A DNA stretch of 32,000 nt from Microcystis aeruginosa NIES-2549 (GCF_000981785.2 NZ_CP011304.1:90001-122000); one strand, 5' to 3'. Counted from the first letter of the stretch, positions 1 to 30,482 are shown. Numbers and translations: made by a program. The notes: generated by a model not told the origin, from the sequence alone.

Positions 1-720
1 AATGACTCTGGCAAGTTCTAAGGCTTCGGGTAACACTTCAGGTAAATAGGGAGCTAACCCGGTCAATGCCCTTGCACGGTAGTATTCATCCCTAATCCCT
101 CTGGCAACCGCTAAAGCTTCGGGTAACAAACTGACCGGTAAATAGGGAGCTAACCCGGTCAATGCCTCTGCACGGTCGTATTCATCCCTAATCCCTCTGG
201 CAATTTCCAAGGCTTCGGATAACACTTCGGGTAAATAGGGAGCTAACCCGGTCAATGCCCTTGCACGGAAGTCTTCAACCCGAATCCCTCTGGCAGCTTC
301 TAAGGCTTCGGGTAACAAACTTTCCGGTAAATAGGGAGCTAACCCTGTCAATGCCCTTGCACGGAAGTTTTCAACCCGAATCCCTCTGGCAGCTTCTAAA
401 GCTTCGGGTAACACTTCCGGTAAATAGGGAGCTAACCCGGTCAATGCCCTTGCACGGTAGTATTCATACCCAATCCCTCTGGCAATTTCTAAGGCTTCGG
501 GTAACACTTCCGGTAAATAGGGAGCTAACCCGGTCAATGCCCAAGCACGGTTGTATTCATACCCAATCCCTCTGGCAACTTCTAAGGCTTCGGGTAACAC
601 TTCAGGTAAATGAGGAACTAACTCAGTCAATGCCCATGCACGGTCAGATTTATCCCCAATCCCTCTGGCAATTTCTAAGGCTTCGGATAACAAAGTAGAA
701 GTAAGATAGGGACTAATTGC
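1..720 (-). repeat. Tandem 93/96-bp coding repeats (31/32-aa HEAT-like units) at the C-terminal end of the STAND gene
   Basis: The landmark GGTCAATGCC recurs at 61, 157, 250, 346 (TGTCAATG), 439, 532 and 625 (AGTCAATG), giving spacings of 96, 93, 96, 93, 93 and 93 bp. Units are highly similar at DNA level and continue off the left edge. Confidence 0.85.
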
Positions 721-3096
721 TGTTAATCCTCCGGCTTGCTTCTCAGAATCTGGATTTTGCCGTACATAAGCCAAACCCTGAGCAGGTGTCCAGATTTCAT
801 GTTTAATCAGTGCCGCAATTAATTCTGGTGGAATATTAGTCGCCAAACTATTAAGAGAAGTGGTGATTAAAGCATAACGCACCTGTAACCCCATAGACTC
901 ACTCTTGTTCTCAATAAAATGCTCCTCCGCCAGTTGCCAAGCCCGGGAAACATCCTTAATAAAAACTGCTGTTTTCCCTTCCCTTTCACATTGACTATAC
1001 CAACCATTATGACCTTCTGCGGTTTCTTCCCTCAGTAATAGATGAATCTGGGCTATCTGTCCCGCTTTTTCCAAATGCCAGAGCAATTGATTATAAATAT
1101 AGCCATCATCCTCTAAACTGTGCCAATTTGATCCCCCTAAATCCCCCTTACTAAGGGGGACTTCCACCTCTTTTCCCCCCTTTTCAAGGGGGGTTAGGGG
1201 GGATCTCTCCTTTTCAAGGGGGGTTAGGGGGGATATCTCCTTTTCAAGGGGGGTTAGGGGGGATATCTTAATTTGTCTTTGATACCGTTGTAAAAGTTGC
1301 CCATGCGCTTCAGAAATCGACAAACCTAACCCCGGTAATCGATAATCCGTTTCAGTATTAGGAGACGCTAGGATCAGATTTCGGGCTAAATCATGTAACA
1401 AATCATGGACCCGATAACTCGTTAATAGTTCACTAGAAACCCCCGTTAATAATAAAGCTTTACCCCGTAAATATCTTAAAGTTTGCCTCGCTTCTCTAAC
1501 CGGACAATCCCATAAAGTCGTCGCCATTTTTTCGGTAATGGTAACATCATCGGGTAACACCCCTAACCAGCTAAATTGTCTCAATCTTTGCCCATTTAAC
1601 CGCTTTAAACTGAGATTAAAGCAAGCAATTAAACTATAATGTTTTCGTTTTTCTTCATTGACAGTATCTCCAGCTTCCAAGCGATCTAAAATTTCTAAAT
1701 GAGCGATTTCTGCTCGTAAATCTTCGATTAATTCAGCCCAAGGAATCCCATCTTCAATTTGTGCCGCCGTCAACTCCAAAGCTAAGGGTAAATAACCGAC
1801 AATTTTGGCTAATATTTTGGCTTGTTTCTGATCTGCTAAATTTAATTCATGCTTTAAATAACCCGTTAATAAGGCTAAAGATTGGCTTTCCGTCATCACA
1901 TTCAAATCATAACGAATTGCTCCTTTAACGGGAACTTCCCTAGTGGTTACTAATAATTTACATTGATTTACTGCTACTCTAAAAGGATCAATATCTTCCA
2001 CATTCCAGAGATCATCTACCACTAATAAAGCCTTTTTATCTGCCAATAAAGTCCTCAAGTGTAAGGATGCCGCATCAATACCCGTCGGCTTAAAATTATA
2101 ATCTCCTAAAGCTTGAATCCAGCCATGAAGAAAGGATAAAATATCTGGTTGTTGTCCTAAAGTTGCCCAGAAAATGCCATCAGGAAAATAAGCTTGAACT
2201 TCTTTTTCTTGTGCTAATGCCGCCGCTAAAGTGGATTTACCAATCCCTCCTAATCCATAAATCGCACTAATAACTAAAGTTCCAGTTTTTTCCGTTGTTT
2301 CTGACAATAAAAGTTGTTTTAATTCAATACTAACCTCTGGACGTTCGACAAAATAACTCGGTTTAGGAGGAGCTTGATTGCGATAGGAAGAAGATTTTAA
2401 AGAAGCGGATATAACGGGTTTAGGTTCAGGATCAATATCATGGTTTTCTAATATCTCACACCATTCGGGATTGTCATAAACCCTGGCCAAAGATTCAGCT
2501 TCTAAAGATGCCGGACGATCTCTAATTGGCTGTTTAGATTGTACCCCAATCACTAACCCATGACAAACAATTGCTGATCCCGATGTTCCTTGCCAAGGTG
2601 ACTGATCTTCTGCTAATCTTTCTAATTGTTCATCGGTGGGTTGTATGTCTTGACTATCTTTAATATTTAATAACAACCGGTTATGAGGCGCACGATTAGA
2701 CACATCGATAGTTCCCTCAATATGTAACCCTGTGGCGTATTTTATCTCATCTTCAACATACCGTAAAAATAGAGGAAAGCCCAAACAGTCAAATTTAACT
2801 TTTTTTGTGGTATTAGCATCAGGTAACACCCCAAAACCTACAGGATTACAAGTTTCGATAGTTTCTGGTAATTCAACTAAAGCTATATCTATATTATCCG
2901 GTGCTTTCCAAATTACTTTAGCGTCTATATCCTGCTTATCAGAATAGTCTGATGCTGATCTAATTCGTACTTTACAGTCGTTACTATTATCAAATAGATG
3001 CCGACAAGTCAAGAGTAAACGTCCCCCAATTCGATAGGCAGTGCCATACTTAGGGGCAACAATTTCTAAAGCGCGATCGGGTTGGAATTGGGGCAT
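1..3096 (-). CDS. STAND NTPase, partial (C-terminus lies beyond window start): trypsin-like serine peptidase + NB-ARC ATPase + HEAT-like repeat array
   Basis: Absent from the ORF track because the frame has no stop inside the window. My reverse-complement translation from ATG 3096..3094 stays open to position 1. Peptidase triad contexts are LLLTCRHLF, DIALVEL and GTSGSAI (about 2500-3096). NB-ARC motifs are GLGGIGKSTLA (Walker A, ~2240), LLVVDDLW (Walker B, ~2020), LLVTTR, GYLPLALEL and VHDLLHDLA (MHD-like, ~1400). These are followed by at least 8 repeats of type ALTGLAPYLPEVLPEALEIARGI. Confidence 0.85.
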   Translation of the reverse strand, partial: MPQFQPDRALEIVAPKYGTAYRIGGRLLLTCRHLFDNSNDCKVRIRSASDYSDKQDIDAKVIWKAPDNIDIALVELPETIETCNPVGFGVLPDANTTKKVKFDCLGFPLFLRYVEDEIKYATGLHIEGTIDVSNRAPHNRLLLNIKDSQDIQPTDEQLERLAEDQSPWQGTSGSAIVCHGLVIGVQSKQPIRDRPASLEAESLARVYDNPEWCEILENHDIDPEPKPVISASLKSSSYRNQAPPKPSYFVERPEVSIELKQLLLSETTEKTGTLVISAIYGLGGIGKSTLAAALAQEKEVQAYFPDGIFWATLGQQPDILSFLHGWIQALGDYNFKPTGIDAASLHLRTLLADKKALLVVDDLWNVEDIDPFRVAVNQCKLLVTTREVPVKGAIRYDLNVMTESQSLALLTGYLKHELNLADQKQAKILAKIVGYLPLALELTAAQIEDGIPWAELIEDLRAEIAHLEILDRLEAGDTVNEEKRKHYSLIACFNLSLKRLNGQRLRQFSWLGVLPDDVTITEKMATTLWDCPVREARQTLRYLRGKALLLTGVSSELLTSYRVHDLLHDLARNLILASPNTETDYRLPGLGLSISEAHGQLLQRYQRQIKISPLTPLEKEISPLTPLEKERSPLTPLEKGGKEVEVPLSKGDLGGSNWHSLEDDGYIYNQLLWHLEKAGQIAQIHLLLREETAEGHNGWYSQCEREGKTAVFIKDVSRAWQLAEEHFIENKSESMGLQVRYALITTSLNSLATNIPPELIAALIKHEIWTPAQGLAYVRQNPDSEKQAGGLTAISPYLTSTLLSEALEIARGIGDKSDRAWALTELVPHLPEVLPEALEVARGIGYEYNRAWALTGLAPYLPEVLPEALEIARGIGYEYYRARALTGLAPYLPEVLPEALEAARGIRVENFRARALTGLAPYLPESLLPEALEAARGIRVEDFRARALTGLAPYLPEVLSEALEIARGIRDEYDRAEALTGLAPYLPVSLLPEALAVARGIRDEYYRARALTGLAPYLPEVLPEALELARVI
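1130..1268 (-). repeat. G/C-run palindromic repeat element plus 3 x 30-bp tandem copies, in frame inside the STAND CDS
   Basis: The unit CCTTTTCAAGGGGGGTTAGGGGGGAT(C/A)TCT occurs three times (1179-1208, 1209-1238, 1239-1268), encoding (I/R)SPLTPLEK(E/G) x3. The adjacent CCCCCTTACTAAGGGGG palindrome (about 1143-1159) resembles the intergenic repeats at 13858-13950 and 30413-30482. Confidence 0.8.
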
Positions 3097-3135
3097 AACT
3101 TATCGGATTGATGTAACCTATTCTTCTGGGATGGC

Positions 3136-3161
3136 GATGGGTTACGCTTCGCTAACCCATC
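3136..3161. other. Stem-loop (9-bp stem GATGGGTTA / TAACCCATC) in the 118-nt spacer between the trypco2-like and STAND genes
   Basis: Perfect 9-bp inverted repeat with an 8-nt loop, read directly. Its role (REP-type, attenuator or processing site) is unknown. Confidence 0.4.
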
Positions 3162-3214
3162 CTACAAATTAACTGCTTTGGGGGCAAGCATTGCGTCCCT
3201 AGGGGTATAAAATT

Positions 3215-3517
3215 CTAATCGGGAATATCATCACTTGCTGTCTTGATAGGTCCTCCATCTTTCCCAATGGGTTTAAGGGGAATTTTAATTCTATGGGTTA
3301 TCGTATCTTTATTGGTGACACCCCCACCCATTTCTACTACCCAAAATTTCAGCCCACCTTTGCCTTCTTTCGACTGCTCAACCACAAATTGAACCTCTAA
3401 TTCAATTTCACCCACTTCAAAGCGAATCTGCTCACCCTCAGAGGCTAAAATAGATTTACTCAGTTCAACCCGCAATGCTTCTAAGGTTTCTCGAAGTCCA
3501 ACTTTATTGATGTCCAT
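3215..3517 (-). CDS. trypco2-like (trypsin co-occurring domain 2) small protein
   Basis: 100-aa ORF immediately upstream of, and co-oriented with, the peptidase-STAND gene. The pattern LEALRVEL...IRFEVGEIELEVQFVV...GGLKFWVVEMGG...DTITHRIKIPLKP matches my recollection of trypco2 family proteins. This has not been checked by a search. Confidence 0.65.
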   Translation of the reverse strand: MDINKVGLRETLEALRVELSKSILASEGEQIRFEVGEIELEVQFVVEQSKEGKGGLKFWVVEMGGGVTNKDTITHRIKIPLKPIGKDGGPIKTASDDIPD

Positions 3518-3623
3518 AATTCTCTAGTTATTTTTGAAGGATGCAAACAAAAACCCTTTCAATTCTATCGTTTTTCTGAAACTTTAGGGCAGAGAGATTG
3601 CCTTTATCCAATTGATATAATAG

Positions 3624-3657
3624 CCCAACCCGATCGCTAAGGTAAGCGCGGGTTGGG
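3624..3657 (-). terminator. Possible terminator hairpin downstream of pdxH
   Basis: A 9-bp stem CCCAACCCG / CGGGTTGGG with a 16-nt loop lies about 90 nt after the pdxH stop. There is no clean U-tract, so this is weak. Confidence 0.25.
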
Positions 3658-3748
3658 AAAAGAAATCGACCTAATATTATCTCAAGACTAAAATGACAAA
3701 TTGAATTAGCATCGAGCTATTTTGCTAATACAAGGTGTCAAAATAAAA

Positions 3749-4393
3749 CTAAGGAGCTAAACGTTGCCTTTGCCAACTGCCATCTTCTTGACGATAATAA
3801 CAGAGACGATCGTGGAGACGACTGGGGCGACCTTGCCAGAACTCGATTAAACTAGGAATTAGGCGAAATCCGCCCCAATGAGGAGGACGGGGAACTTCAC
3901 GACCCGCATATTCTTCTTTTAGTTCTGCTAGGCGTTTTTCGAGTATATCTCGCCCAGAAATCACTTCACTTTGATTGGAGGCCCAGGCCCCTAAACGAGA
4001 TTCCCAGGGACGGACAAAAAAGTAATTATCCGATTCCTCCTCGCTGATTTTTTCTACAGTTCCCTCAATCCTAATTTGCCGTTGCAATTCTCCCCACCAA
4101 AACACTAGGGCAGCATTGGGATTGGCGATTAATTCCTGTCCCTTGGCGCTTTGGTAGTTGGTAAAGAGAACAAAACCGCGAGGATCGAAGTCTTTTAACA
4201 GTACCATGCGGGCCCGGGGTTTACCCTCCGGGGAAATAGTGGCTAAAGTCATAGCGTTGGGTTCCAATCTTCCCGAAGATACCGCCCGTTCTAGCCATTG
4301 TTTAAATACAATGAAAGGATCGGCAGATGTTTCTGACTCTAGCAATTCTTCAAGATTGTAGTCCAAGCGCAGGTCAGCGATCGATATGTCCAT
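3749..4393 (-). CDS. pdxH: Pyridoxamine 5'-phosphate oxidase
   Basis: 214 aa. The C-terminal IEFWQGRPSRLHDRLCYYR...RLAP signature is typical of PdxH. Confidence 0.9.
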   Translation of the reverse strand: MDISIADLRLDYNLEELLESETSADPFIVFKQWLERAVSSGRLEPNAMTLATISPEGKPRARMVLLKDFDPRGFVLFTNYQSAKGQELIANPNAALVFWWGELQRQIRIEGTVEKISEEESDNYFFVRPWESRLGAWASNQSEVISGRDILEKRLAELKEEYAGREVPRPPHWGGFRLIPSLIEFWQGRPSRLHDRLCYYRQEDGSWQRQRLAP

Positions 4394-4444
4394 GGTTTTG
4401 CTTGCTAAATTTTATCCTTTGAGATCCTACAAGATTCTACAATC

Positions 4445-5215
4445 ATGACTATCACCTCGGCCAGTGATGCGATCGCCTCTCTTTTAGAAATGGCGGAACA
4501 GGGAGAAATTGACCCCTGGGATGTGCAGGTTATCGATGTGATCGATCGCTTTTTGGCAGAATTGGGGTTATTAAATGATCTAGATTTAGCCATGGCCCAG
4601 GCTAATTTACCCCAATCGGGACAGGCTTTTTTATGGGCTTCTATGTTAGTTTTATTTAAGGCTGATACCCTAGAAAGATTGTCTTTGGACCAGCAAGAAG
4701 AAAGTCTGATTGATGAGGAAATTAGCGACTTAGAACGGGAATTAAGAACTTTACCCCGTTATCTAGAAAATCATATTCGCCGTCGTACTGCCGCCCCACC
4801 ACCGCGAAAAAGACGGGTAACTTTGCAGGAGTTAATCACTCAATTACAACAGATTGCCCTAGAGATTGAAGCTTTACCGAAACTGTCTGTAGTTGTCCCG
4901 AAACCCCGGCCCCAATCCCGACGGGAAGCGGTACAAATTATCACGGAATTGGCCCACCAAGAAAACCTGACGGAATTGGCAGCGGAACTGGACTTTTTTT
5001 TGCAGAGAAAGTTTTTTCAATTGGAGAAAAAGGAGATAGAGTTTGAGTATTTATTAGATTTATGGCAAGCGGAAAAGCCTTCTAGTCACTCGGCAACACA
5101 GGAAAAGGTGGCGATTTTTTGGGCTTTACTTTTACTGGCTTCTCAATCAAAAGTGGAGTTAAAACAGGAGGATTTTTATCAGGATTTAACTATTTGTTTG
5201 ATTAGGGTTTGCTGA
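4445..5215 (+). CDS. scpA: Segregation and condensation protein A (kleisin)
   Basis: 256 aa. The N-terminal LLEMAEQGEIDPWDVQVIDVIDRFL motif is characteristic of ScpA. Confidence 0.8.
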   Translation: MTITSASDAIASLLEMAEQGEIDPWDVQVIDVIDRFLAELGLLNDLDLAMAQANLPQSGQAFLWASMLVLFKADTLERLSLDQQEESLIDEEISDLERELRTLPRYLENHIRRRTAAPPPRKRRVTLQELITQLQQIALEIEALPKLSVVVPKPRPQSRREAVQIITELAHQENLTELAAELDFFLQRKFFQLEKKEIEFEYLLDLWQAEKPSSHSATQEKVAIFWALLLLASQSKVELKQEDFYQDLTICLIRVC

Positions 5216-5258
5216 AAAAGTTTTTTCTAGAGGCAGGGTGTGCGGTGTCGGGTGTGGG

Positions 5259-5328
5259 CTTCGGCCGTGAGCTTTTGCGTTCGACTGAGCGTTCGACAAA
5301 AGCTCACGCCGAAGTCTCACGCCGAAGT
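5259..5328. repeat. Imperfect long hairpin plus tandem 13-mer (CTCACGCCGAAGT x2) downstream of scpA
   Basis: CTTCGGCCGTGAGCTTTTGCGTTCGA ... TCGACAAAAGCTCACGCCGAAG forms an inverted repeat, followed by a direct repeat. It looks REP-like and may act as a terminator. Confidence 0.5.
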
Positions 5329-5764
5329 CCGAACGGGTGTAGGGTTTTACCGATTTTGAGGGGGTCAATTACCTAATTTTCAGGGAAAAAGTACCTGAAT
5401 TTTCCCCCCGATCACTCCCAGTCCCGGAACTTTTTGATGGGAAAAAAGTCTAAAAGTTTTATCCAACAAGGTTTTTAGATTTATTCAGCCAGCCCTAATT
5501 AAAAACCAATAGCGACGGCAGCCTAACTAGACCGTTGTAAATTTTTGTTACGAAGCGCAGTCAGATCGAAGAATCGGTGCTATACCCGCAGGAAAAAAGC
5601 TTATGTTATTTCAGCTGATTGTCAGGAATCCAGCTAAAGGACGTTGTTTGCAGTACGCTAATCTAGCTAACAGGCTTCTGAGTTTGATATAGGGAAAAGT
5701 TCGGCTCGATCACGCCAAAACGGGGTGATATGCTCAAAGTTTCCACATATCCTTACTCTGAGGA

Positions 5765-5791
5765 TTGTTATCGGTCAAGTTTCTGTATAAT
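5765..5791 (+). promoter_or_regulatory. Candidate promoter for the methyltransferase gene
   Basis: TTGTTA (5765-5770), a 15-nt spacer, then TATAAT (5786-5791) preceded by TG. The spacer is short. Confidence 0.25.
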
Positions 5792-5854
5792 CAATAGTTG
5801 GGCGGTAAGCATAAACCACAGCTACTAGGCATTTAGAGTGCTTGCCCTTCAAGT

Positions 5855-7387
5855 ATGTGGACTACAAGTAGTGTAGCCAAGAATGAAAACTTATATAATA
5901 CCCTAGATATAGCAATCAACATAAAGTTCCCTATGGCTGCAACAACCGTCAAAGATATTAGCAATCCTGATACATATAAAGGTTTGTACTCATTCCACAA
6001 ATATTGGGGTAAGAAGCCGACCGAGAGCATTTCTTTTTTTATACAAAACTATACAAGTATCACTGATATAGTTCTTGATCCTTTTTTAGGTTCAGGTCTA
6101 ATTAGCCGAGAATGTTTATCTCAGAAAAGAAGGTTTATTGGAATTGATATTAATCCATTTTCAGTTGAACACACAAAGTTTCTATTAGAGCTGCCAGAAG
6201 CCACATCATTTCGTGAGACTTTCAAGAGTGTTGAAACTAATATCAAGCAGAAAATTAATGATACATACCGTACCAGTAATGGAAAGATTGCATCTCATTA
6301 CCTATGGAATGGCAAAAACCTCTCAAAGATATGGATTAAACCAGAGGTAGGTAGAAGTAGAATTGAAATCGAACCAAATGAGTTTGATTGGGAAAATTTC
6401 AACTCGTTTTCTCAGTATTCAGTTCGTAATATTAGAGAGGCAATTTTTTTCACAAACTCTAGAATTAATTCTAACAACCAGATGTCCATCTATGATTTAT
6501 TTACTAGCAGGTCTTTACATAATATTGATCTGATACTCGATGAAGTAAAAACACTTCCTGATACGCTTAAACGAGCTTTCTTGTTAACTCTTACTTCCTC
6601 CTCGGGGCAAATGTCATCTATGGTGTTTGCAATTACTAATAGAGGGAAAGCTAAGAAACAAGTTTCTAATAAGATTGAAGTTGGAAGCTGGGTTATTGGT
6701 TACTGGCGACCGCACTTACACTTTGAGATCAATGTTTGGAATTGTTTTGAAAGTAGAGCCAACAAATTACACAAGACTTTGCTTAACATTGGCAGACGTG
6801 AACATCCACAATGCGAGTCGATAAACAGGCTTTTAGAAAGTACTCAAGGTGCCTTGATTCTTAATGAGGATTGCTTGAGCGTGATGAAAACCATACCTGA
6901 GAAAACCATAAAGCTAATTTGTACCGATCCACCTCATAGTGATAGGATTCCCTACCTTGAGTTAAGCGAGATGTGGAATTCTATCTTAAATGAGAAAGTA
7001 TGTTTTGAAAAAGAGATCATTGTTTCTAATGCCAAGGAAAGAAACAAAAAGAAAGATGAATATATTAAACAGATGAAACTATTCATCAATGAAGCGAGTC
7101 GTGTCCTTACTGATGAGGGAATATTCTTAATGTATTTTAATGCGCGCGATAAGCAAAGCTGGAGGTTTCTAGAGGTTCTCGAAAACAGTTCTGATTTAAA
7201 CTTTGTCGGTACTTTCCCTATGGAATACTCTGCAAATTCGGTAGTTCAGGATAATAGGAAAGGCGGGTTAAAGACAGATTATGTTCTTGTACTTGTTAAA
7301 AAGAGATTCAATATTAAGTTCCAGCATAGGCTAGATGAAATCCCAGGATGGTCAGCTTCACTACCAAAAGTGGGTTTGGAACCATGA
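5855..7387 (+). CDS. DNA N6-adenine or N4-cytosine methyltransferase
   Basis: 510 aa. The AdoMet-binding motif VLDPFLGSGLISRE...FIGIDINP lies at ~6064-6150 and the catalytic motif LICTDPPHSDRIPY at ~6917-6955. The start is uncertain, with an alternative Met at 5930. Confidence 0.8.
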   Translation: MWTTSSVAKNENLYNTLDIAINIKFPMAATTVKDISNPDTYKGLYSFHKYWGKKPTESISFFIQNYTSITDIVLDPFLGSGLISRECLSQKRRFIGIDINPFSVEHTKFLLELPEATSFRETFKSVETNIKQKINDTYRTSNGKIASHYLWNGKNLSKIWIKPEVGRSRIEIEPNEFDWENFNSFSQYSVRNIREAIFFTNSRINSNNQMSIYDLFTSRSLHNIDLILDEVKTLPDTLKRAFLLTLTSSSGQMSSMVFAITNRGKAKKQVSNKIEVGSWVIGYWRPHLHFEINVWNCFESRANKLHKTLLNIGRREHPQCESINRLLESTQGALILNEDCLSVMKTIPEKTIKLICTDPPHSDRIPYLELSEMWNSILNEKVCFEKEIIVSNAKERNKKKDEYIKQMKLFINEASRVLTDEGIFLMYFNARDKQSWRFLEVLENSSDLNFVGTFPMEYSANSVVQDNRKGGLKTDYVLVLVKKRFNIKFQHRLDEIPGWSASLPKVGLEP

Positions 7388-7424
7388 AATTTGACAAGAT
7401 AAATAAAAGCTTTAAGAATTGATT

Positions 7425-8531
7425 ATGAAAGATTTCACTTATTGGAAAAAACTACATGACGGCAATAATTTATTAGAGTTCAACACTGACTCTACTGGTC
7501 AGTTATGGCTGAAGATCAAATCAATTGTAAGAAGGGAGTTGTTATTAGAATTCACTGAGAGATTCTCCCTGAATTTAATTTCTACTAGCTTGAATGGGCA
7601 GTTTGAAGAGCTATTCTCTCTATTGAAGGATAATCCAACCGAAGCACATCGAAAATTAGATGCTTACATTAGAGAGAAAAATACACAACAATTACAATGC
7701 TTAAATCAGGAAGCGTTAGTTTCTGAGTTGTATAAGTTGAAAACATTTGAGTGGGGAGGAGATTATCAGAACTCTTTAGATAAATATTTGGTAACTCATT
7801 ATGTAAAGGCAATTTCATCTTACGATGTATTAATATCTAAATTTGAAAAAGAGATAAATCGTGCTGTTCAGGGTTATGTGTTGAATAGTTGGTATAATCA
7901 TTGGTCTAGTATTTTAATTGAACATCTCTTCAAATCTCATCCATCTGTTTTACCTACTGTTGGACAAATTAAAAGTGTAGATTTCTTTATTCAAAACTTG
8001 CCTTTTGATCTAAAGGTTACATATTTTCCCGCAGAATACCTAAAGTTAAAGAGGAGAGAGAAAGGTCTTCCTGTAGAACTCACGTTTCTTAAGCAGAAAG
8101 CACGAGAGCTTGCGATAACCTTTGATAAATCGGCAAAACCTTCTGATCTTTACTACGAGATAACTGAAAAATTAAAAGATAGAGATGACGATTTATCTTT
8201 AGATGTTTTAAACCAACTAAAGTCTCAGAATCTATCGATTGTTGGTGAAACACAGCAAAATCCAAGAACACTAATTAAGTGGTTATATGAAAATCAAGGA
8301 GAAATGCGTTTTGGTTCAGAAAATCGTTTATTTCTTGTCTTGATTGATACGAGGGACTTCTCAAATTCTTGGAAGCTCAAAAGAAATCTCGATATTTTAG
8401 CACCTGCGATAAATTCTTTTCTTGCTGATTTCAGATCAAAGACAATATCCGCTCTAACAATAGATTTTCGTTATCCTGGTAAGCCACAAACATTTAGTGC
8501 ATTATCAGATGTAATTTTTGTTGTGAAATAA
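7425..8531 (+). CDS. Candidate type II restriction endonuclease (PD-(D/E)xK-like), partner of the methyltransferase
   Basis: Begins 38 nt after the MTase stop on the same strand and has the same AT-rich composition. A motif VDFFIQNLPFDLKVTY (D...DxK, ~7973-8023) is present. I recognised no family. ATG 7425 is preferred over the TTG at 7419 used by the track. Confidence 0.5.
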   Translation: MKDFTYWKKLHDGNNLLEFNTDSTGQLWLKIKSIVRRELLLEFTERFSLNLISTSLNGQFEELFSLLKDNPTEAHRKLDAYIREKNTQQLQCLNQEALVSELYKLKTFEWGGDYQNSLDKYLVTHYVKAISSYDVLISKFEKEINRAVQGYVLNSWYNHWSSILIEHLFKSHPSVLPTVGQIKSVDFFIQNLPFDLKVTYFPAEYLKLKRREKGLPVELTFLKQKARELAITFDKSAKPSDLYYEITEKLKDRDDDLSLDVLNQLKSQNLSIVGETQQNPRTLIKWLYENQGEMRFGSENRLFLVLIDTRDFSNSWKLKRNLDILAPAINSFLADFRSKTISALTIDFRYPGKPQTFSALSDVIFVVK

Positions 8532-8840
8532 GTTGCTTTCTCTTGGGAACTATGAACAACAGCGAGAGCCGATCTGGTAGAGTGCGTCTGGTGAAAGAGA
8601 TGTATAGAGTCGTCTAAGTTTAATCACTTGATCCCGTGAAATTATGAGAATTAAATAAATTACAGTTAAGCATCTTTTTGTCATATTTGACCAGAGAATT
8701 AACCTCAACATTGAGTAAAGAATAACTATTATTTATGGTAAAAATTGCTGCGAAAAAAACTCAACACTGCGATTAGTCAATGTTTTTTTTAATTGAGAGT
8801 CTGATGCAATAAACCGTCCCGAGAATTACTCAAATTTTTC

Positions 8841-9329
8841 TCATCTTTTTTTCTCAAACCATGTTTGTAATAATTCCCCGGATTCCTTGGCTAAAATTCC
8901 CGCGATTACTGGTAAACGATGGTTAGAAAAAGGACTATCAATCAAATTAGCCACAGTGCGGATAACTCCTGTTTTGGGATCGTCAGCACCGTACACTAAT
9001 AATCCTAGCCTAGCCTGAATGATTGCCCCAGCACACATGGGACAGGGTTCGAGGGTGACGTAGAGGGTACAATCATTTAAGTGCCAATTGCCTAAAACTT
9101 GACTAGCGGCACGAATCGCCAGAATTTCGGCGTGAGCGGTGGGATCATGGTGTTTTTCCTTGCAATTAGCCCCTTGAGCGATTAAATGTCCCTGTTTATC
9201 CACGATAACCGCTCCCACAGGTACATCACCCCGATCCCCCGCAGTTGCCGCTAAATTTAAAGCTAACTGCATCCATTGCCGATGTTTCTCATAGGCTTTT
9301 TCATCAATAGACTTTAGATAGTCCCACAT
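8841..9329 (-). CDS. tadA: tRNA-specific adenosine deaminase
   Basis: 162 aa with the deaminase zinc motifs HAEILAIR and PCPMCAGAI. Confidence 0.9.
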   Translation of the reverse strand: MWDYLKSIDEKAYEKHRQWMQLALNLAATAGDRGDVPVGAVIVDKQGHLIAQGANCKEKHHDPTAHAEILAIRAASQVLGNWHLNDCTLYVTLEPCPMCAGAIIQARLGLLVYGADDPKTGVIRTVANLIDSPFSNHRLPVIAGILAKESGELLQTWFEKKR

Positions 9330-9407
9330 TTAGCCAATAAATTATCTAATTTTTTCTGACCATCCAAAGCATACAAATCATCACAACCACCGAGATGTTC
9401 ATTATTA
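9314..9407 (-). pseudogene. Glutaredoxin gene, 3' fragment separated by the IS insertion
   Basis: The minus-strand reading gives NNEHLGGCDDLYALDGQKKLDNLLAKCGTI*. The stop at 9316..9314 overlaps the tadA start at 9329..9327. Confidence 0.8.
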
Positions 9408-10551
9408 GACCTCTCCAAAAATTTATAAGTCAGTCACAGCAAGGAAGAGAGGCAGATTAGACCAAGAGTCAAAATTAGCTCTCAAAACCGATTAATCAGG
9501 GTTTGAAGAGACAAAATCCAATTTTGACGGAAAACTATGGCTAATTATAACGTCAATTACTTCCCCTGATTGCTCCCCTTCTATTACTTCTAAAATTAGC
9601 GCACTAATTCTCAACCTTACTAAGCCACAAACGGTCAGTAAAACCGATTTATATCGACTTTTATTTAATCTAAATCTTTCTTGAACTACTTTAAATACTT
9701 TGACAACTCGAATTAAATGCTCAACAAAAATTCGCCGAGATGATAAAACTTTATTTTCTTTAATTTGATTCTCGGTTAATTCTCCATTCTTAGGTTTTTT
9801 ATCAGGAGTTCTGATTTGATTTTCTCCTAGGTAAGCTTTATCTCCAATAAAAGTTTGTTGAGAATCGAATTTGCTTAAAGTTTGCCGACAGATTTTTATG
9901 TCGCTCGTCGGACCAGGTTGACCAATAACTACATCAACAATATCTTCAGCTTTTGGCAAGACAATAAATTGACTTTTTAAAGTATGTCTTTTTTGCTTTC
10001 CCGAATAATATATTTTTTGTTCTTGATAATCGGTCGGCCTCTCCACGGGCTGTTCTGCGCTATCGACAATCAACTCATAATCCCTTAATTGTTCAATTAT
10101 TATTTCCTCTTCTTGGCACTTCTTTATTTGTTCTAACAAACTTGGCGGTAACTCTCCTTCAAAAAGTTTTTGCCAATAGGTAAAGATATTATGAGCCGTT
10201 GATTCACTCACTTGAAATATTAGTCCTAAGATTTGAAAGCTTAGATGATGTCTTAAATAAACCAACATTAGAACAATTTGTTCCTCTTCTGATAATTTAG
10301 GAGGTGTTCCGCTTCCTGGTTGATTAATCCTAATTTTGGTTTTTTCGATTTCTGATTGGTTTTTCCGATGTATAAGTTTTCCAAGTGCCATCAGTTGTTC
10401 TAGTTGTTGGTAGTCAATTCCTAATAGTCTTTTAGTTTGTTTCGGATATTTTTGAATGTATTCCCAAGTGTAGTTTTTCATGGCTTTTTTGAGTTACTAT
10501 TTGTTTTATTATATCCTATATATTGTGATTTAATTAAATTATGGAGAGGTC
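9408..10551 (-). mobile_element. IS element (DDE_Tnp_4 / Harbinger-like, IS5-superfamily type), 1144 bp
   Basis: The termini GACCTCTCCA (9408-9417) and TGGAGAGGTC (10542-10551) are inverted repeats, with imperfect similarity extending further inward. TATTA flanks both ends directly (9403-9407 and 10552-10556). The element contains a single transposase ORF. Confidence 0.85.
9492..10481 (-). CDS. DDE transposase with N-terminal HTH
   Basis: 329 aa. The HTH-like segment is LVYLRHHLSFQILGLIFQVSESTAHNIF. DDE-region segments include IVDSAEQPVERP, YYSGKQKRHTLKSQ, IGDKAYLG and SSRRIFVEHLIRVVK. Confidence 0.85.
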   Translation of the reverse strand: MKNYTWEYIQKYPKQTKRLLGIDYQQLEQLMALGKLIHRKNQSEIEKTKIRINQPGSGTPPKLSEEEQIVLMLVYLRHHLSFQILGLIFQVSESTAHNIFTYWQKLFEGELPPSLLEQIKKCQEEEIIIEQLRDYELIVDSAEQPVERPTDYQEQKIYYSGKQKRHTLKSQFIVLPKAEDIVDVVIGQPGPTSDIKICRQTLSKFDSQQTFIGDKAYLGENQIRTPDKKPKNGELTENQIKENKVLSSRRIFVEHLIRVVKVFKVVQERFRLNKSRYKSVLLTVCGLVRLRISALILEVIEGEQSGEVIDVIISHSFPSKLDFVSSNPD

Positions 10552-10726
10552 TATTAATAAAAATCTGTGGTACACTGCGTTTACCGTTGGACCGTTCGGC
10601 CATGGCTTGACGTGCGCTTTCATCCCCATCAATCTTGTATTCGGTGTATTTTACTCCTTTCCAACCCAGCAACCATTTGGCCCGAATACAGTAGGGACAA
10701 GTTGCCCAAGTTTGACGCTCCCATCG
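10552..10726 (-). pseudogene. Glutaredoxin gene, 5' fragment (CPYC active site)
   Basis: The minus-strand reading gives ..ERQTWATCPYCIRAKWLLGWKGVKYTEYKIDGDESARQAMAERSNGKRSVPQIFIN, then enters the IS. An in-frame TAG lies at 10729..10727, with no in-frame start codon between it and the CPYC motif. Confidence 0.75.
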
Positions 10727-11068
10727 CTAAAAGCGAGGGATTCTTGGTTCAACAAGTCCACTTACTTTAGATTCCTTGCGTTATCTAAAACAGAGGTGGT
10801 TCTTTCCCCAAGCGTTACTTTTCGTGCGCCCCACGATAGTTGTATTTCTACAAAATTTGCTTTAATTGAAACGTTAGCTTCAAATACTGCTTTGTCTAGT
10901 TCCTACAAAGATTTTACCTACTCACAGGTGAGAAACTAGAACTATTGAGTAGAACCCTATATCTTTGATTGTCAAGGTGCAGAGGTTGTAGTGATTAGAC
11001 TACATGGGTTTTTAGAGCGGTTGATTACCCTATCCGCTATGCTCACATAGTAGCTATTTTTCGTAAGT

Positions 11069-11248
11069 ATGTCAAGACCCTTAAAAGAAAAAAGACTGCC
11101 GATGCTCATGACTCCGAATATGAGCAAGCGCACTTCAAAATACGCATCTAGAATGAAATTAACAATTTCAGAAGTTATTCGAGATTTTGCTCTTGAGATT
11201 AGACATTTATTTTTAGCTGTGCTTCGTGTCACTGAGCCTTTACATTGA
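11069..11248 (+). CDS. Possible ribbon-helix-helix (CopG/MobC-like) small DNA-binding protein
   Basis: A 59-aa ORF, below the track cutoff: MSRPLKEKRLPMLMTPNMSKRTSKYASRMKLTISEVIRDFALEIRHLFLAVLRVTEPLH. The basic N-terminus, beta-strand-like RLPMLMTP and the LTISEVIRDFAL helix fit an RHH pattern. Confidence 0.35.
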   Translation: MSRPLKEKRLPMLMTPNMSKRTSKYASRMKLTISEVIRDFALEIRHLFLAVLRVTEPLH

Positions 11249-11474
11249 GCCTGTCAAAATGTGTCGAAATGTGTCGAAGTGTGGACACTGAGCTTGTCGA
11301 AGTGCTGTTTTATATTGACGGAACCTTTCATCTCCGAGGTAAAACCGAGAGTTCCTTCAAGCCGACATTTAAGGTAAATTTCCACATTGGCCTTGATATT
11401 CTCGTTATAACGCCCAAAAAGCGAGTTAAATAGATTTAGCATCTTGTGACTACAGAAATATTTATCTCTATTTT

Positions 11475-12035
11475 ATGGATTCTGCTACCAAAAAAGCCCA
11501 ATTACGCAAACAACTAATTACCCAAAGACGATCGCTTCCTAAGCATATTTGGCAAGAAAATAGTCAACAACTTTGCAAAAATTTACAATCTTTACCCCTC
11601 TTTCAACACGCTAAAACCATTCTCGCTTACTTCAGTTATCGTCAAGAGCCGGATTTAAGTTCCTTATTTTGCCAACACCATCGCTGGGGTTTTCCCCGTT
11701 GTGACGGAGATAGCCTGACTTGGCACTGTTGGACTGCCGACGATCCCCTAGAATTAAATCGTTATGGCATCTACGAACCAACAGCGATCGCTCCTCTCAT
11801 TTTACCGGCCGAAGTGGACTTACTGTTAATTCCTGCCGTTGCTTGCGATCGCCAAGGTTATCGCTTAGGTTACGGGGGGGGTTATTTTGATCGTCTCTTA
11901 CATTCCCCCGAATGGCAAGCTATCCCCTCGATCGGGATTGTCTTTGACTTTGCCTATCTCGATACCCTTCCCCTCGATACTTGGGACCAAAAATTACAGG
12001 CAATCTGTACCGAATCGAGAACCGAAATTTTTTAA
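11475..12035 (+). CDS. 5-formyltetrahydrofolate cyclo-ligase
   Basis: 186 aa with the GYRLGYGGGYFDR signature near the C-terminus. Confidence 0.85.
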   Translation: MDSATKKAQLRKQLITQRRSLPKHIWQENSQQLCKNLQSLPLFQHAKTILAYFSYRQEPDLSSLFCQHHRWGFPRCDGDSLTWHCWTADDPLELNRYGIYEPTAIAPLILPAEVDLLLIPAVACDRQGYRLGYGGGYFDRLLHSPEWQAIPSIGIVFDFAYLDTLPLDTWDQKLQAICTESRTEIF

Positions 12036-12279
12036 CAATTATTTCCTTTTGTGTGATCGGTTTAACTTATATGGGAGCGATCGATCTTTGTGTCCTTTGT
12101 GTCTTTGTGGTTCGTTCTAGTCGTTCGCTGGCACTGTATCTTAGAATACATTTTACCCACCGACTACTCATATATTAAGTTTTATTGAATCCGATCGACC
12201 CTTAAGATAGCTTTGCTAGGATGAAATTCACATCAGGAGATGTTTAAAGTAATCACCGGAAAAAGTCAACAGGGAAGCA

Positions 12280-12597
12280 ATGAAACACTTTCACGAACAA
12301 TGGATTCAAGAATGGTGTCAAGAAAACGGCTGGACAGAGCTATTTCTCGAACGCTACAGTAATTATTGGGCATTCCCTCCCAATGCCGTGATGCCAGAAC
12401 CAATTCCCCCCAAAGTGTTACAAAACATTAAGCGCCAAAAAGGTCTATCCCCTGCCGAAAAACTTTGGTTAGGAGTGGCTATCGGATTGACTCTGACAGC
12501 TTTAATTCTCTGTATCACCCTCGCTTGTCCCATGCCTATAGTTCTCGCTTTCGCTTTTGATGCTGTCACCGCAGCGCGATTGGAAGTGGAATATTAA
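12280..12597 (+). CDS. Hypothetical small membrane protein
   Basis: 105 aa with a hydrophobic C-terminal half (LWLGVAIGLTLTALILCITLACPMPIVLAFAF). I recognised no family. Confidence 0.5.
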   Translation: MKHFHEQWIQEWCQENGWTELFLERYSNYWAFPPNAVMPEPIPPKVLQNIKRQKGLSPAEKLWLGVAIGLTLTALILCITLACPMPIVLAFAFDAVTAARLEVEY

Positions 12598-12700
12598 CCG
12601 GGCAAAAATTGAGCAGCAAAAACCTAAACAGGGGTAGATTTTTGCGAAGGTCTTCCCCTTTGCCGCGTTTTTCTGGACAGGGACGATCGATCTGTCTTGA

Positions 12701-12808
12701 ATCAGTAATCGGTGATCAGTGGTCAGTAGGAGAATAGAATATTAAGTGAGCAGTATTCAATGACAGTTTTCTGCTGTCTTTTCACTGATTACTGTTTATT
12801 GTTTACTG
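12701..12808. repeat. Heptamer-flanked intergenic element, copy A
   Basis: Degenerate CAGTAAT-type heptamers flank the core ATTAAGTGAGCAGTATTCAATGACAGTTTTCTGCTGTCTTTTCACTGATTACTG, followed by GATTACTG-type heptamers. It is related to 17897-18008 and 31127-31254. Confidence 0.7.
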
Positions 12809-12818
12809 AAAAGTCCCC

Positions 12819-13832
12819 ATGTCCGAATCTCGTCGCTTACAGTTTACCCCCGATCTGGAAATTTGCCGTATTTTGAACGGAATGTGGCAGGTTTCAGGCG
12901 CCCATGGTTCGATCGCACCCCAAAAAGCGATCTCTAGTATGTTCTCCTATCTAGATGCCGGTTTCACCACTTGGGATCTGGCCGATCATTACGGTCCAGC
13001 CGAAGATTTTATTGGTGAATTTCGTCGTCAATTAGTCGCCCAAAGGGGCATTGATGCTTTAAATAATCTGCAAGCTTTCACTAAATGGGTTCCCCGTCCG
13101 GGTAAAATGACTAAGGAAATAGTCGCCAAAAATATCGCTATTTCCCTGCGTCGCATGGATGTGGATAGTCTCGATTTATTGCAGTTTCACTGGTGGGATT
13201 ATCGCGATAACAATTATCTAGATGCCTTATATTTTTTAGGAGAATTACAACAGGAAGGCAAAATTAAACACCTGGCCTTGACTAATTTCGACACGGAACA
13301 TTTAAAAATTATTCTCAGCGCCGGGATTAAAATAGTCTCCAATCAAGTCCAGTTTTCTCTAATCGATCGCCGTCCCCTCGTCAAAATGGCGCAATTTTGC
13401 CAAGAACATAACATCTATCTACTCGCCTATGGTACTCTAGCAGGAGGCTTATTAGGGGCAAAATATCTCGGTCATCCCGAACCCAATGCCATGAGTCTCA
13501 ATACCGCTAGTTTACGGAAATATAAAAACATGATCAATGCTTGGGGAAACTGGCAATTATTCCAAGAATTATTAACCGTTCTTAAAGCGATCGCTGATTC
13601 CTATCATGTCACCATTCCTAATGTGGCAGTGCGTTACGTTCTCGAACAAAAAGCCGTAGCCGGGGCAATTATCGGGGTGCGTTTGGGTGTTGCTGAACAT
13701 ATCCAAGAAAATGCCCGTATTTTCGATTTTCAATTATCCCCCCAAGACTATCAAAAAATTGATCATGTCTTACAAAAATCCCGGGATTTATTGCAGTTAA
13801 TCGGTGATTGCGGTGATGAGTACCGTCGTTAA
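12819..13832 (+). CDS. Aldo/keto reductase family oxidoreductase
   Basis: 337 aa with AKR-like features (WDLADHYG, LDLLQFHWWD, GKIKHLALTNF) throughout. Confidence 0.8.
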   Translation: MSESRRLQFTPDLEICRILNGMWQVSGAHGSIAPQKAISSMFSYLDAGFTTWDLADHYGPAEDFIGEFRRQLVAQRGIDALNNLQAFTKWVPRPGKMTKEIVAKNIAISLRRMDVDSLDLLQFHWWDYRDNNYLDALYFLGELQQEGKIKHLALTNFDTEHLKIILSAGIKIVSNQVQFSLIDRRPLVKMAQFCQEHNIYLLAYGTLAGGLLGAKYLGHPEPNAMSLNTASLRKYKNMINAWGNWQLFQELLTVLKAIADSYHVTIPNVAVRYVLEQKAVAGAIIGVRLGVAEHIQENARIFDFQLSPQDYQKIDHVLQKSRDLLQLIGDCGDEYRR

Positions 13833-13950
13833 GTAGGTAGGTGTTAAAAATTGTCAGCTTTCCCCCCTTATTAAGGGGGGACTAAGGGGGGATCGCCACA
13901 CCCCTTATTAACGGGGGACTAAGGGGGGATCGGCACACCCCTTATTAAGG
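13829..13950 (+). repeat. Repeat element with a 29-nt head TTAAGTAGGTAGGTGTTAAAAATTGTCAG and two CCCCTTATTAAGGGGGGACTAAGGGGGGATCG-type palindromic units
   Basis: The head is identical to 30382-30410. The palindromic G/C-run units are related to 30413-30482 and 1130-1268. The AKR stop codon (13830-13832) lies inside the head. Confidence 0.8.
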
Positions 13951-30385: not shown

Positions 30386-30482
30386 GTAGGTAGGTGTTAA
30401 AAATTGTCAGATACCCCCCTTATTAAGGGGGATCCCCCCGCCTATCGGCACCCCCCTTATCAAGGGGGGCAGGGGGGGATCG
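30382..30482 (+). repeat. Repeat element, second copy of the 29-nt head plus CCCCCCTTATTAAGGGGG / CCCCCCTTATCAAGGGGGG palindromic units
   Basis: 30382-30410 is identical to 13829-13857 and is followed by G/C-run palindromes of the same family. Confidence 0.8.

Follow-up and report, generated by a model that had tools for sequence, protein, structure and literature searches.

What is encoded by a protease gene that continues into an NTPase and a tandem-repeat array in a bloom-forming cyanobacterium, and what is the small gene that precedes it? The question is raised by the first 3,517 nucleotides (nt) of a 32,000-nt stretch of the Microcystis aeruginosa NIES-2549 genome (NZ_CP011304.1:90001-122000; hereafter the window, with positions counted from its first letter). 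There, an initial annotation made from the sequence alone had described a two-gene, minus-strand unit as a candidate uncharacterised antiphage system. We conclude that the unit is probably a Pepco (Trypco2)/trypsin-STAND abortive-infection system. Systems of this kind are already understood experimentally, and the unit is not a new kind of system; it departs from the known pair in the clade of its STAND NTPase, which is NB-ARC/Apaf-1-like, and in its tandem-repeat sensor.

Two adjacent genes and their domains

The larger gene is a minus-strand open reading frame (ORF) whose ATG lies at position 3096 and in which no stop interrupts the 1032 codons up to base 1 (translation of window 1-3600, minus strand). 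It extends past the window edge, the sole reason for its absence from the ORF list, and at 41% G+C a stop-free run of this length cannot be due to chance. A 100-amino-acid (aa) ORF, followed by its stop codon, lies 118 nt upstream on the same strand (3215-3517). The two-gene arrangement was thus as initially annotated, and every motif that had been quoted from the large protein was present in our translation. In the spacer between the genes (3097-3214, minus strand) a terminator and promoter scan revealed no terminator-like site and no strong minus-strand promoter; since no intrinsic terminator was found, trypco2 and the protease-STAND gene are presumably co-transcribed. A short hairpin at 3120-3160 (minus strand; GATGGGTTAGCGAAGCGTAACCCATC) is reminiscent of a small repeat common in cyanobacterial intergenic DNA; folding of the spacer gave a hairpin of no significance (z = -1.06).

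The small protein had been likened to trypco2, and this identity proved correct: its match to the Pfam family Trypco2 (PF19631) spans the complete model (positions 1-78 of 78) with E = 5e-24 and 84.8 bits (cut-off 24.2). A search with the NCBI trypco2 model, which had been suggested as a check, was uninformative in that NCBIfam release 20 gave no match for the small protein. The family comprises 1337 related clusters at 50% identity (phmmer), and the exact window sequence occurs in at least 107 contig blocks of Microcystis. Positions conserved throughout the family are L8, L15, R16, E18, L19, F33, E41, G55, F58-W59-V60, T74-H75, L81 and P83. In the AlphaFold2 (AF2) model of the monomer (mean predicted local distance difference test score, pLDDT, 71) a helix (residues 8-25) is followed by three strands (38-49, 55-61 and 74-81) and a coil tail, KPIGKDGGPIKTASDDIPD, that is predicted to be disordered. 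The strands alternate hydrophobic and charged residues (beta-type hydrophobic moment 0.5-0.57). A Foldseek comparison of the monomer with the PDB returned nothing below E = 0.4.

Residues 1-225 of the large protein (2422-3096, minus strand) form a trypsin-like protease domain (PA clan, S1/HtrA-like). The large ORF scores 25.8 bits against Pfam Trypsin (cut-off 20.6) and 27.0 bits against Trypsin_2, just under the cut-off of 27.6. Its catalytic triad, H33 (2998-3000), D70 (2887-2889) and S172 (2581-2583), lies in the motifs LTCRHLF (aa 29-35), DIALVEL (aa 70-76) and GTSGSAI (aa 170-176), and is invariant in 10 homologues of 39-90% identity. With the domain alone as a phmmer query, no match was obtained among PDB sequences; a profile built from the 10 homologues did match Deg/HtrA proteases (E = 1.6e-4), with LTxxH placed on their catalytic-His motif (TNAH) and DIAL on their catalytic-Asp motif (DIALL). 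The S1-type protease with an intact triad that had been read from the sequence is therefore well founded, as the match above the Trypsin cut-off and the invariant triad indicate. One relative stands apart: a 249-aa fragment from a Crocosphaera metagenome-assembled genome (MAG; P0281) carries a protease domain 81% identical to that of the window, which passes directly, near aa 185, into bona fide HEAT/HEAT_PBS repeats; no NTPase separates the two. Since its contig is only 2 kb long, this fragment could be either chimeric or one more type of sensor.

The protease is followed by an NB-ARC (AP-ATPase clade) STAND NTPase module (approximately aa 240-608; 1273-2379, minus strand). The NB-ARC assignment of the initial annotation was confirmed by the Pfam match (PF00931; E = 3.5e-18) together with a Walker A motif, GLGGIGKST (aa 281-289; 2230-2256), a Walker B motif, LLVVDDLW (aa 357-364; 2005-2028), a GLPL-type motif, GYLPLAL (aa 434-440; 1777-1797), and an MHD-type VHD within VHDLLHD (aa 563-569; 1390-1410); the segment LLVTTR is at aa 381-386 (1939-1956). 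Among PDB sequences this region matches AfsR (8e-23), Apaf-1 (5e-15) and plant NLRs (ADR1/NRG1-type, CNL). Between this nucleotide-binding oligomerisation (NOD) module and the repeats lies a helical region (aa 657-800; 697-1128, minus strand) with a likeness to APAF1_C that is weak in the window protein (E = 0.16) and significant in its orthologues from Crocosphaera (9.5e-6) and Snowella (6e-7). AF2 models aa 656-755 with low confidence.

AfsR is also the name that several database records give to relatives of the large protein: orthologues are called "regulatory protein AfsR" in NCBI and UniRef, and AfsR is both its best NCBIfam match (E = 7.8e-25) and its best PDB sequence match, as would be expected if it were an AfsR-like transcriptional regulator. 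The match (NF053617), however, spans only model positions 289-609 of 986, in the NB-ARC region, and reaches 87 bits against a cut-off of 1430; indeed, all NCBIfam matches of the protein are sub-threshold and fall in the NB-ARC region. Moreover, the large protein has no SARP/BTAD or other DNA-binding domain, and its N-terminus is a protease with an intact triad. On the score and the missing DNA-binding domain we rejected membership of the AfsR regulators, and the probability that the protein acts as one is next to nil.

From about aa 800 the large protein consists of tandem two-helix repeats of 31 or 32 aa (93 or 96 nt; 1-696, minus strand), a predicted alpha-solenoid sensor whose array crosses the window edge. 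Tandem Repeats Finder (TRF) reports a period of 93 nt and 7.3 copies with 88% matches before the window ends. Among full-length orthologues (1341-1529 aa), 13-20 repeats are followed by an 86-aa C-terminal cap with the conserved sequence ...LTRPNFLETIPNLAPLILHFGG... and the end ...TLTRPNFLETIPNLAPLILHFGGEVALREVYQSIRDVSRWW (the range covers orthologues of at least 1300 aa whose repeats are parsed by the motif). A rough motif count that includes partial proteins gives approximately 1-21 copies between strains. The array had been described as HEAT-like. That it is a real tandem two-helix solenoid is upheld by TRF and by AF2, which places a regular helix pair every 31 residues with pLDDT above 90; the Pfam side of the description failed, with no match to a HEAT, ARM or TPR model even at E up to 10 and a spurious DUF4644 as the only return, in a search in which the fragment P0281, as positive control, gave true HEAT matches. 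Foldseek returned generic alpha-solenoids only (Ton1535, LGN-TPR and VPS35; template-modelling score approximately 0.3). Because of these two results, "HEAT-like" is acceptable only in the sense of a two-helix solenoid.

Within the repeat, positions A2, L3, A6, R7, I9, R15, L19, L22, P27 and L30 form a near-invariant scaffold, and positions 4, 5, 8, 10, 11, 13, 14, 17, 20 and 21 are highly variable. On the AF2 model the latter map to the A-B loop and one face of helix B, suggesting that they may form a binding surface. Per-site pN/pS (nonsynonymous over synonymous polymorphism) across 49 repeat units was 0.33/0.39 at the hypervariable and 0.09/0.14 at the scaffold positions, values too noisy to argue for positive selection. 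A plus-strand ORF of 147 aa (255-698), antisense to the array and without a family match, was set aside as a gene; it is most likely an artefact of the stop-poor repeats.

Conservation of the pair and exchange of sensors

Whether the two genes belong together was examined by scanning species-representative genomes with the window Trypco2, which returned 15 loci, 11 of them with a full-length Trypco2. At all 11, in cyanobacteria and Streptomyces, the gene immediately downstream encodes a trypsin domain. Five different sensor types are attached to it: NB-ARC with APAF1_C and repeats in Microcystis, Crocosphaera and Snowella; nSTAND5 in Microcystis sp. BLCC-F210; NACHT in a Crocosphaera MAG; an NPHP3_N-type STAND in two Streptomyces; and TPR only in Leptolyngbya. 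The pairing was likewise seen in Crocosphaera; in a VMAP/MoxR ternary system (L008), in which Trypco2 is followed by a trypsin-EAD9 protein and then by EAD9-VMAP and MoxR; and beside a type III restriction-modification (R-M) system and a HEPN/MNT pair, where a trypsin-like protease again follows Trypco2. The protease homologues in the VMAP/MoxR and type III R-M settings are 39-41% identical to the window domain. Moreover, an annotated trypco2 gene on a Rhodococcus plasmid adjoins a gene for a 1727-aa trypsin-like protein. Conservation of the pair as a unit, a check that the initial annotation had asked for, was therefore borne out. Trypco2 was found on 26 plasmids and had no match in 50,697 phage records, on which ground we rejected a phage-borne origin.

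The unit is modular as well. Positions 5847-7089 of the Microcystis sp. BLCC-F210 locus (L010) correspond to window positions 3668-2429 as a 1.24-kb cassette of 94.5% nucleotide identity, which starts in non-coding DNA approximately 150 nt ahead of trypco2 and extends across that gene and the spacer to protease codon 225. The protease domains are 92% identical, and the likeness stops at aa 225. In BLCC-F210 the cassette is found elsewhere in the genome, and the NTPase joined to it, an nSTAND5, is unrelated. This looks like a recent swap in which one effector cassette came to serve two STAND sensors of the same genus. Outside Microcystis, the nearest proteins with the NB-ARC-plus-repeat chassis (from Moorena, Nostoc and Leptolyngbya) begin with EAD11 or caspase domains where the window protein has trypsin.

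The proposed mechanism and its alternatives

The definition of Trypco1 and Trypco2 rested purely on their location beside trypsin-like peptidases in NTP-dependent conflict systems (Kaur, Burroughs, Iyer, Aravind, eLife 2020, PMC7159879). The initial annotation knew of no experiments on trypco domains, a statement that no longer holds: Evans et al. (bioRxiv 10.1101/2025.11.14.688446, November 2025) renamed Trypco as Pepco and reconstituted and dissected a Pepco plus trypsin-STAND pair, SsPepco-SsAvs4 of Streptomyces subrutilus, and for this reason the system cannot be called uncharacterised. In that work SsPepco forms SDS-resistant 9-10-mer beta-barrels; the trypsin-STAND protein (Avs4) removes an approximately 2 kDa C-terminal tail from SsPepco after a conserved isoleucine (I97|R98); SsPepco truncated exactly at the scissile Ile is lethal; toxicity in cells needs a phage portal protein, the catalytic Ser and Pepco; and mutations in the N-terminal helix of SsPepco abolish it (bioRxiv 10.1101/2025.11.14.688446). 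Our literature search found no mention of this particular Microcystis gene.

The window pair resembles SsPepco-SsAvs4 in its gene order, a small Trypco/Pepco gene lying immediately upstream, on the same strand, of a protease-STAND-sensor gene, and in the architecture of the large protein, which runs from a trypsin-like serine protease at the N-terminus through a STAND NTPase to a helical sensor at the C-terminus. Both small proteins have a basal helix and beta-strands and end in a disordered tail that is charged and contains proline, and the AF2 layout of the window Trypco2 (helix, three strands, disordered tail) agrees with the published description of Pepco. SsPepco is 117 aa long, whereas the window Trypco2 has 100 aa and a shorter tail. 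Unlike SsAvs4, an Avs4 with a portal-binding sensor, the window protein carries an NB-ARC/Apaf-1-clade STAND and a solenoid of 31-aa repeats. The Streptomyces pair is known by biochemistry, whereas that of the window, from a unicellular colonial cyanobacterium, is known from sequence and models.

By analogy, the series of events proposed for the window pair, as for SsPepco-SsAvs4, would run from sensor to oligomerisation, protease and a clipped pore toxin. The 31-aa alpha-solenoid repeats would bind a trigger, most likely a conserved cyanophage protein; binding would free the NB-ARC NTPase for nucleotide exchange and oligomerisation, as in Apaf-1, NLR and Avs proteins; and oligomerisation would gather the N-terminal trypsin-like protease domains and activate them by proximity. 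The protease would then clip the disordered C-terminal tail of the neighbouring Trypco2/Pepco, a predicted latent pore-forming effector pre-assembled as a small beta-barrel, and the clipped barrel would become a membrane-permeabilising toxin by which the infected cell is killed or arrested. Our analysis itself establishes the domain identities, the intact triad and NTPase motifs, the solenoid fold, the conserved gene pairing and the modular exchange of the cassette. The barrel, the cleavage of the tail after an isoleucine, the toxicity and the phage-protein trigger are all carried over from SsPepco-SsAvs4, and the antiphage role of this particular locus is likewise inferred. The logic put forward in the initial annotation, in which the repeats sense, the STAND module oligomerises, the protease fires and Trypco2 is its substrate or effector, is consistent with the experiments on that homologous pair.

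The cut would probably follow a hydrophobic residue of the tail, whose isoleucines are I84, I91 and I98. Our best guess is I91|K92, by its resemblance to I97|R98, with I84|G85 as the alternative. Family column 91 holds V, L or I in 81% of sequences, and in actinobacterial Trypco2 an Ile is conserved (84%) within an RPxISG motif of the tail. Five clustered changes set the window tail GKDGGPIKTASDDIPD apart from PVLTGS alleles, at the presumed protease recognition region. In a comparison with other Microcystis, Crocosphaera and Snowella alleles, the window Trypco2 (3215-3266) differed from the copies in L011-L014 and L019 almost only in the tail (KPIGKDGGPIKTAS in the window, KPIWKDGKPVLTGS in the others). 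In a search for the SsPepco sequence, neither was a 117-aa protein with I97-R98 found among the representatives, nor was S. subrutilus among the returns when a Streptomyces Trypco2 served as seed.

Several observations weigh against our interpretation. The STAND module belongs to the NB-ARC/Apaf-1 clade and not to Avs4, and the sole match in PADLOC v2 was a weak one to Avs1b (E = 0.008) that covered protease residues 17-185 and left the NTPase and sensor unmatched. As for the tail, 9 aa would remain past I91 compared with 20 aa in SsPepco, and the window allele reads PIKTAS, other Microcystis alleles PVLTGS and the actinobacterial proteins a conserved xISG. The hydrophobic moment of the N-terminal helix of Trypco2 was not above that of shuffled controls. 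Function in the source strain is not guaranteed, because the gene is broken or replaced in many strains (see below) and its 3' end lies beyond the window. For this locus, the case is built from sequence, models and analogy.

The non-significant amphipathicity of that helix also speaks for a reading in which Trypco2 is an adaptor, a chaperone or an inhibitor of the protease, the lethal substrates then being host proteins. Kaur et al. 2020 (PMC7159879) defined Trypco2 by co-occurrence only, Dore et al. (2023) call it an EAD-type adaptor, and the AF2 monomer is modelled with moderate confidence only (pLDDT 71) and has no structural match in the PDB. Against such a role, the SsAvs4 pair is non-toxic without Pepco, Pepco truncated at the cleavage site is sufficient to kill, and the window protein belongs to the same Pfam family from end to end with the same layout of helix, strands and tail. 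We therefore consider a non-effector Trypco2 unlikely, and a death effector licensed by the protease remains our preferred role for it.

The nature of the trigger bears on a further alternative, namely that the function of the module lies in programmed cell death at the level of the colony, in stress signalling or in telling kin from non-self, and that its ligand comes from the cell or the environment. Microcystis is a unicellular organism that lives in colonies, which leaves room for a stress or cell-death role apart from phage; Kaur et al. (PMC7159879) tie such systems to multicellular and social lifestyles; Evans et al. (bioRxiv 10.1101/2025.11.14.688446) point to protease-effector modules whose fusion partners apparently have no part in defence; the NB-ARC domain resembles that of Apaf-1; and the side of the locus that lies in the window consists of housekeeping genes (scpA, PNPOx). 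However, phage proteins elicit a response from every member of the class that has been tested, the locus abuts a toxin-antitoxin island and varies in presence and absence by strain as defence hotspots do, and the surface positions of the repeats are hypervariable between strains, a pattern more in keeping with an arms race than with one unchanging endogenous ligand. A colony-level function is accordingly assigned a low probability, and abortive infection set off by a phage protein is retained as the more plausible purpose.

Three other known systems place the proposed mechanism. The VMAP/MoxR-vWA ternary and STAND conflict systems of Kaur et al. (PMC7159879) share PF19631 with its obligatory trypsin-like peptidase neighbour; unlike the ternary systems, the window protease is fused directly to the STAND sensor, with no EAD adaptor, vWA or MoxR. 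The Apaf-1 apoptosome and the bacterial Apaf-1-like STANDs with an N-terminal caspase (bioRxiv 10.64898/2026.01.04.697583) have in common with the window protein an NB-ARC domain with GLPL and MHD motifs, an APAF1_C-like helical domain and, as predicted for the window protein, a protease activated on an oligomeric platform; the closest relatives are cyanobacterial. They differ in that the window protein has an alpha-solenoid sensor in place of WD40 propellers, a fused serine protease in place of a recruited or fused caspase, and a dedicated small toxin as the presumed substrate of its protease. A bacterial gasdermin, too, is a pore former licensed by the protease encoded beside it through removal of a C-terminal inhibitory peptide, but its fold is unrelated, and it oligomerises after cleavage whereas Pepco is a pre-assembled small barrel. 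The window pair would thus carry the Pepco-protease logic over to another chassis, in which NB-ARC is combined with tandem repeats as the sensor, and would place a predicted protease-licensed pore toxin under an Apaf-1/NLR-type receptor at a strain-variable hotspot of Microcystis. This genus forms toxic freshwater blooms, and phage-host dynamics influence bloom collapse.

Strain variation, the linker element and neighbouring genes

Does every strain keep the unit intact? Across strains the locus is syntenic, with scpA and a PNPOx-family gene ahead of trypco2 and the protease-STAND gene, and toxin-antitoxin pairs after them, and it is a strain-variable hotspot. The protease-STAND gene is full length in L001 and L002 (1456 and 1467 aa), and is reduced to stubs of 220-261 aa in L004-L006, with a SIMPL gene in L004 and L005. 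In four further Microcystis genomes (L015-L018), at the same scpA/PNPOx site, it is replaced by COP23-like and CHAT genes, the CHAT (caspase-like) protease genes coding for 830-865 aa; here trypco2 is cut at codon 80 and ends ...IPLSFCQ*, with a breakpoint that corresponds to window position 3279.

Variation also concentrates in the linker between the NOD module and the helical region (aa 609-656; 1129-1272, minus strand), which reads IKISPLTPLEKE three times and continues to GGKEVEVPLSKGDLGGS (translated SPLTPLEKE...GGKEVEVPLSKGDLGGS). A palindromic element with G5-6/C5-6 tracts, which has the form GATCCCCCC...CCCCCCTTnnnAAGGGGGG...GGGGGATC and is dispersed in the window, is translated here in frame, and the linker copy includes a 30-nt unit repeated three times (1179-1268; TRF period 30, 3 copies, 98% matches). 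The palindrome pattern gave 10 matches where 0.02 were expected, and further copies lie in intergenic DNA at 13862-13880 and 30414-30469. In 18 orthologues, including those of Crocosphaera, the site is empty and reads RYQRQTKNGLWH; the remaining orthologues have 24-108 extra linker residues that derive from duplications of 10, 11 or 21 aa, always in frame. In M. aeruginosa CP012375, the closest genome, which is colinear with window positions 259-13517 and 98.8% identical, one C is lost from the C6 tract of the linker and the gene is split into 613 + 374 aa. Several truncated database proteins stop in or just past the element, which may reflect slippage in vivo or sequencing error in homopolymers.

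The split CP012375 copy, a 1-nt deletion, could be read together with the stubs of L004-L006, the loss of the gene and of the trypco2 3' end in L015-L018, and the position of the 3' end of the gene outside the window as the picture of a decaying pseudogene remnant without current function in the source strain. Yet the window copy is open for 1032 codons, across the fragile linker too, its catalytic and NTPase motifs are intact, and dozens of strains keep full-length genes of 1.3-1.5 kaa with the linker insert always in frame. That the locus of the source strain is such a remnant is very unlikely, and a working Pepco/trypsin-STAND unit accounts better for the reading frame that it has kept.

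A more speculative idea, of low probability, is that the locus is a population-level diversifying immune receptor, with a recombining repeat array and the hinge palindrome as a phase-variation switch. If so, near-identical 31-aa repeats of varying copy number and surface could yield new specificities in the manner of plant NLR allelic series or of variable lymphocyte receptors (VLRs), and slippage in the C6/G6 tracts of the hinge between the NOD module and the sensor could toggle a suicide receptor; the recombining repeat sensor and the in-frame hinge element would then be features not reported for Pepco or Avs systems. Apart from this idea, the interest that the locus retains beside the characterised pair lies in its trigger, its strain-level sensor diversification and its in-frame palindromic hinge element, and the repeat numbers, swapped sensors and broken copies offer a natural allele series with which to study how NLR-like sensors diversify in bacteria.

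The toxin-antitoxin run found directly downstream in relatives (Phd/ParE, UPF0175/DUF3368, PIN, HEPN/MNT, HicAB and DUF3782) lies past the left edge of the window. The remainder of the window consists mostly of housekeeping genes, with the exception of an N6/N4 DNA methyltransferase and a 370-aa protein, and of an insertion sequence. The methyltransferase (510 aa) adjoins the 370-aa protein, which has no family match (5855-8531, plus strand; 9492-10481, minus strand); a DDE_Tnp_4 transposase lies nearby, and among the strains compared the block is shared only with CP012375. One possibility is that an R-M system has been inserted next to the two-gene locus in a strain-specific manner. At 23817-26639 (plus strand) the window encodes a 940-aa protein with at least 13 TPR units, which is unrelated to the two-gene module.

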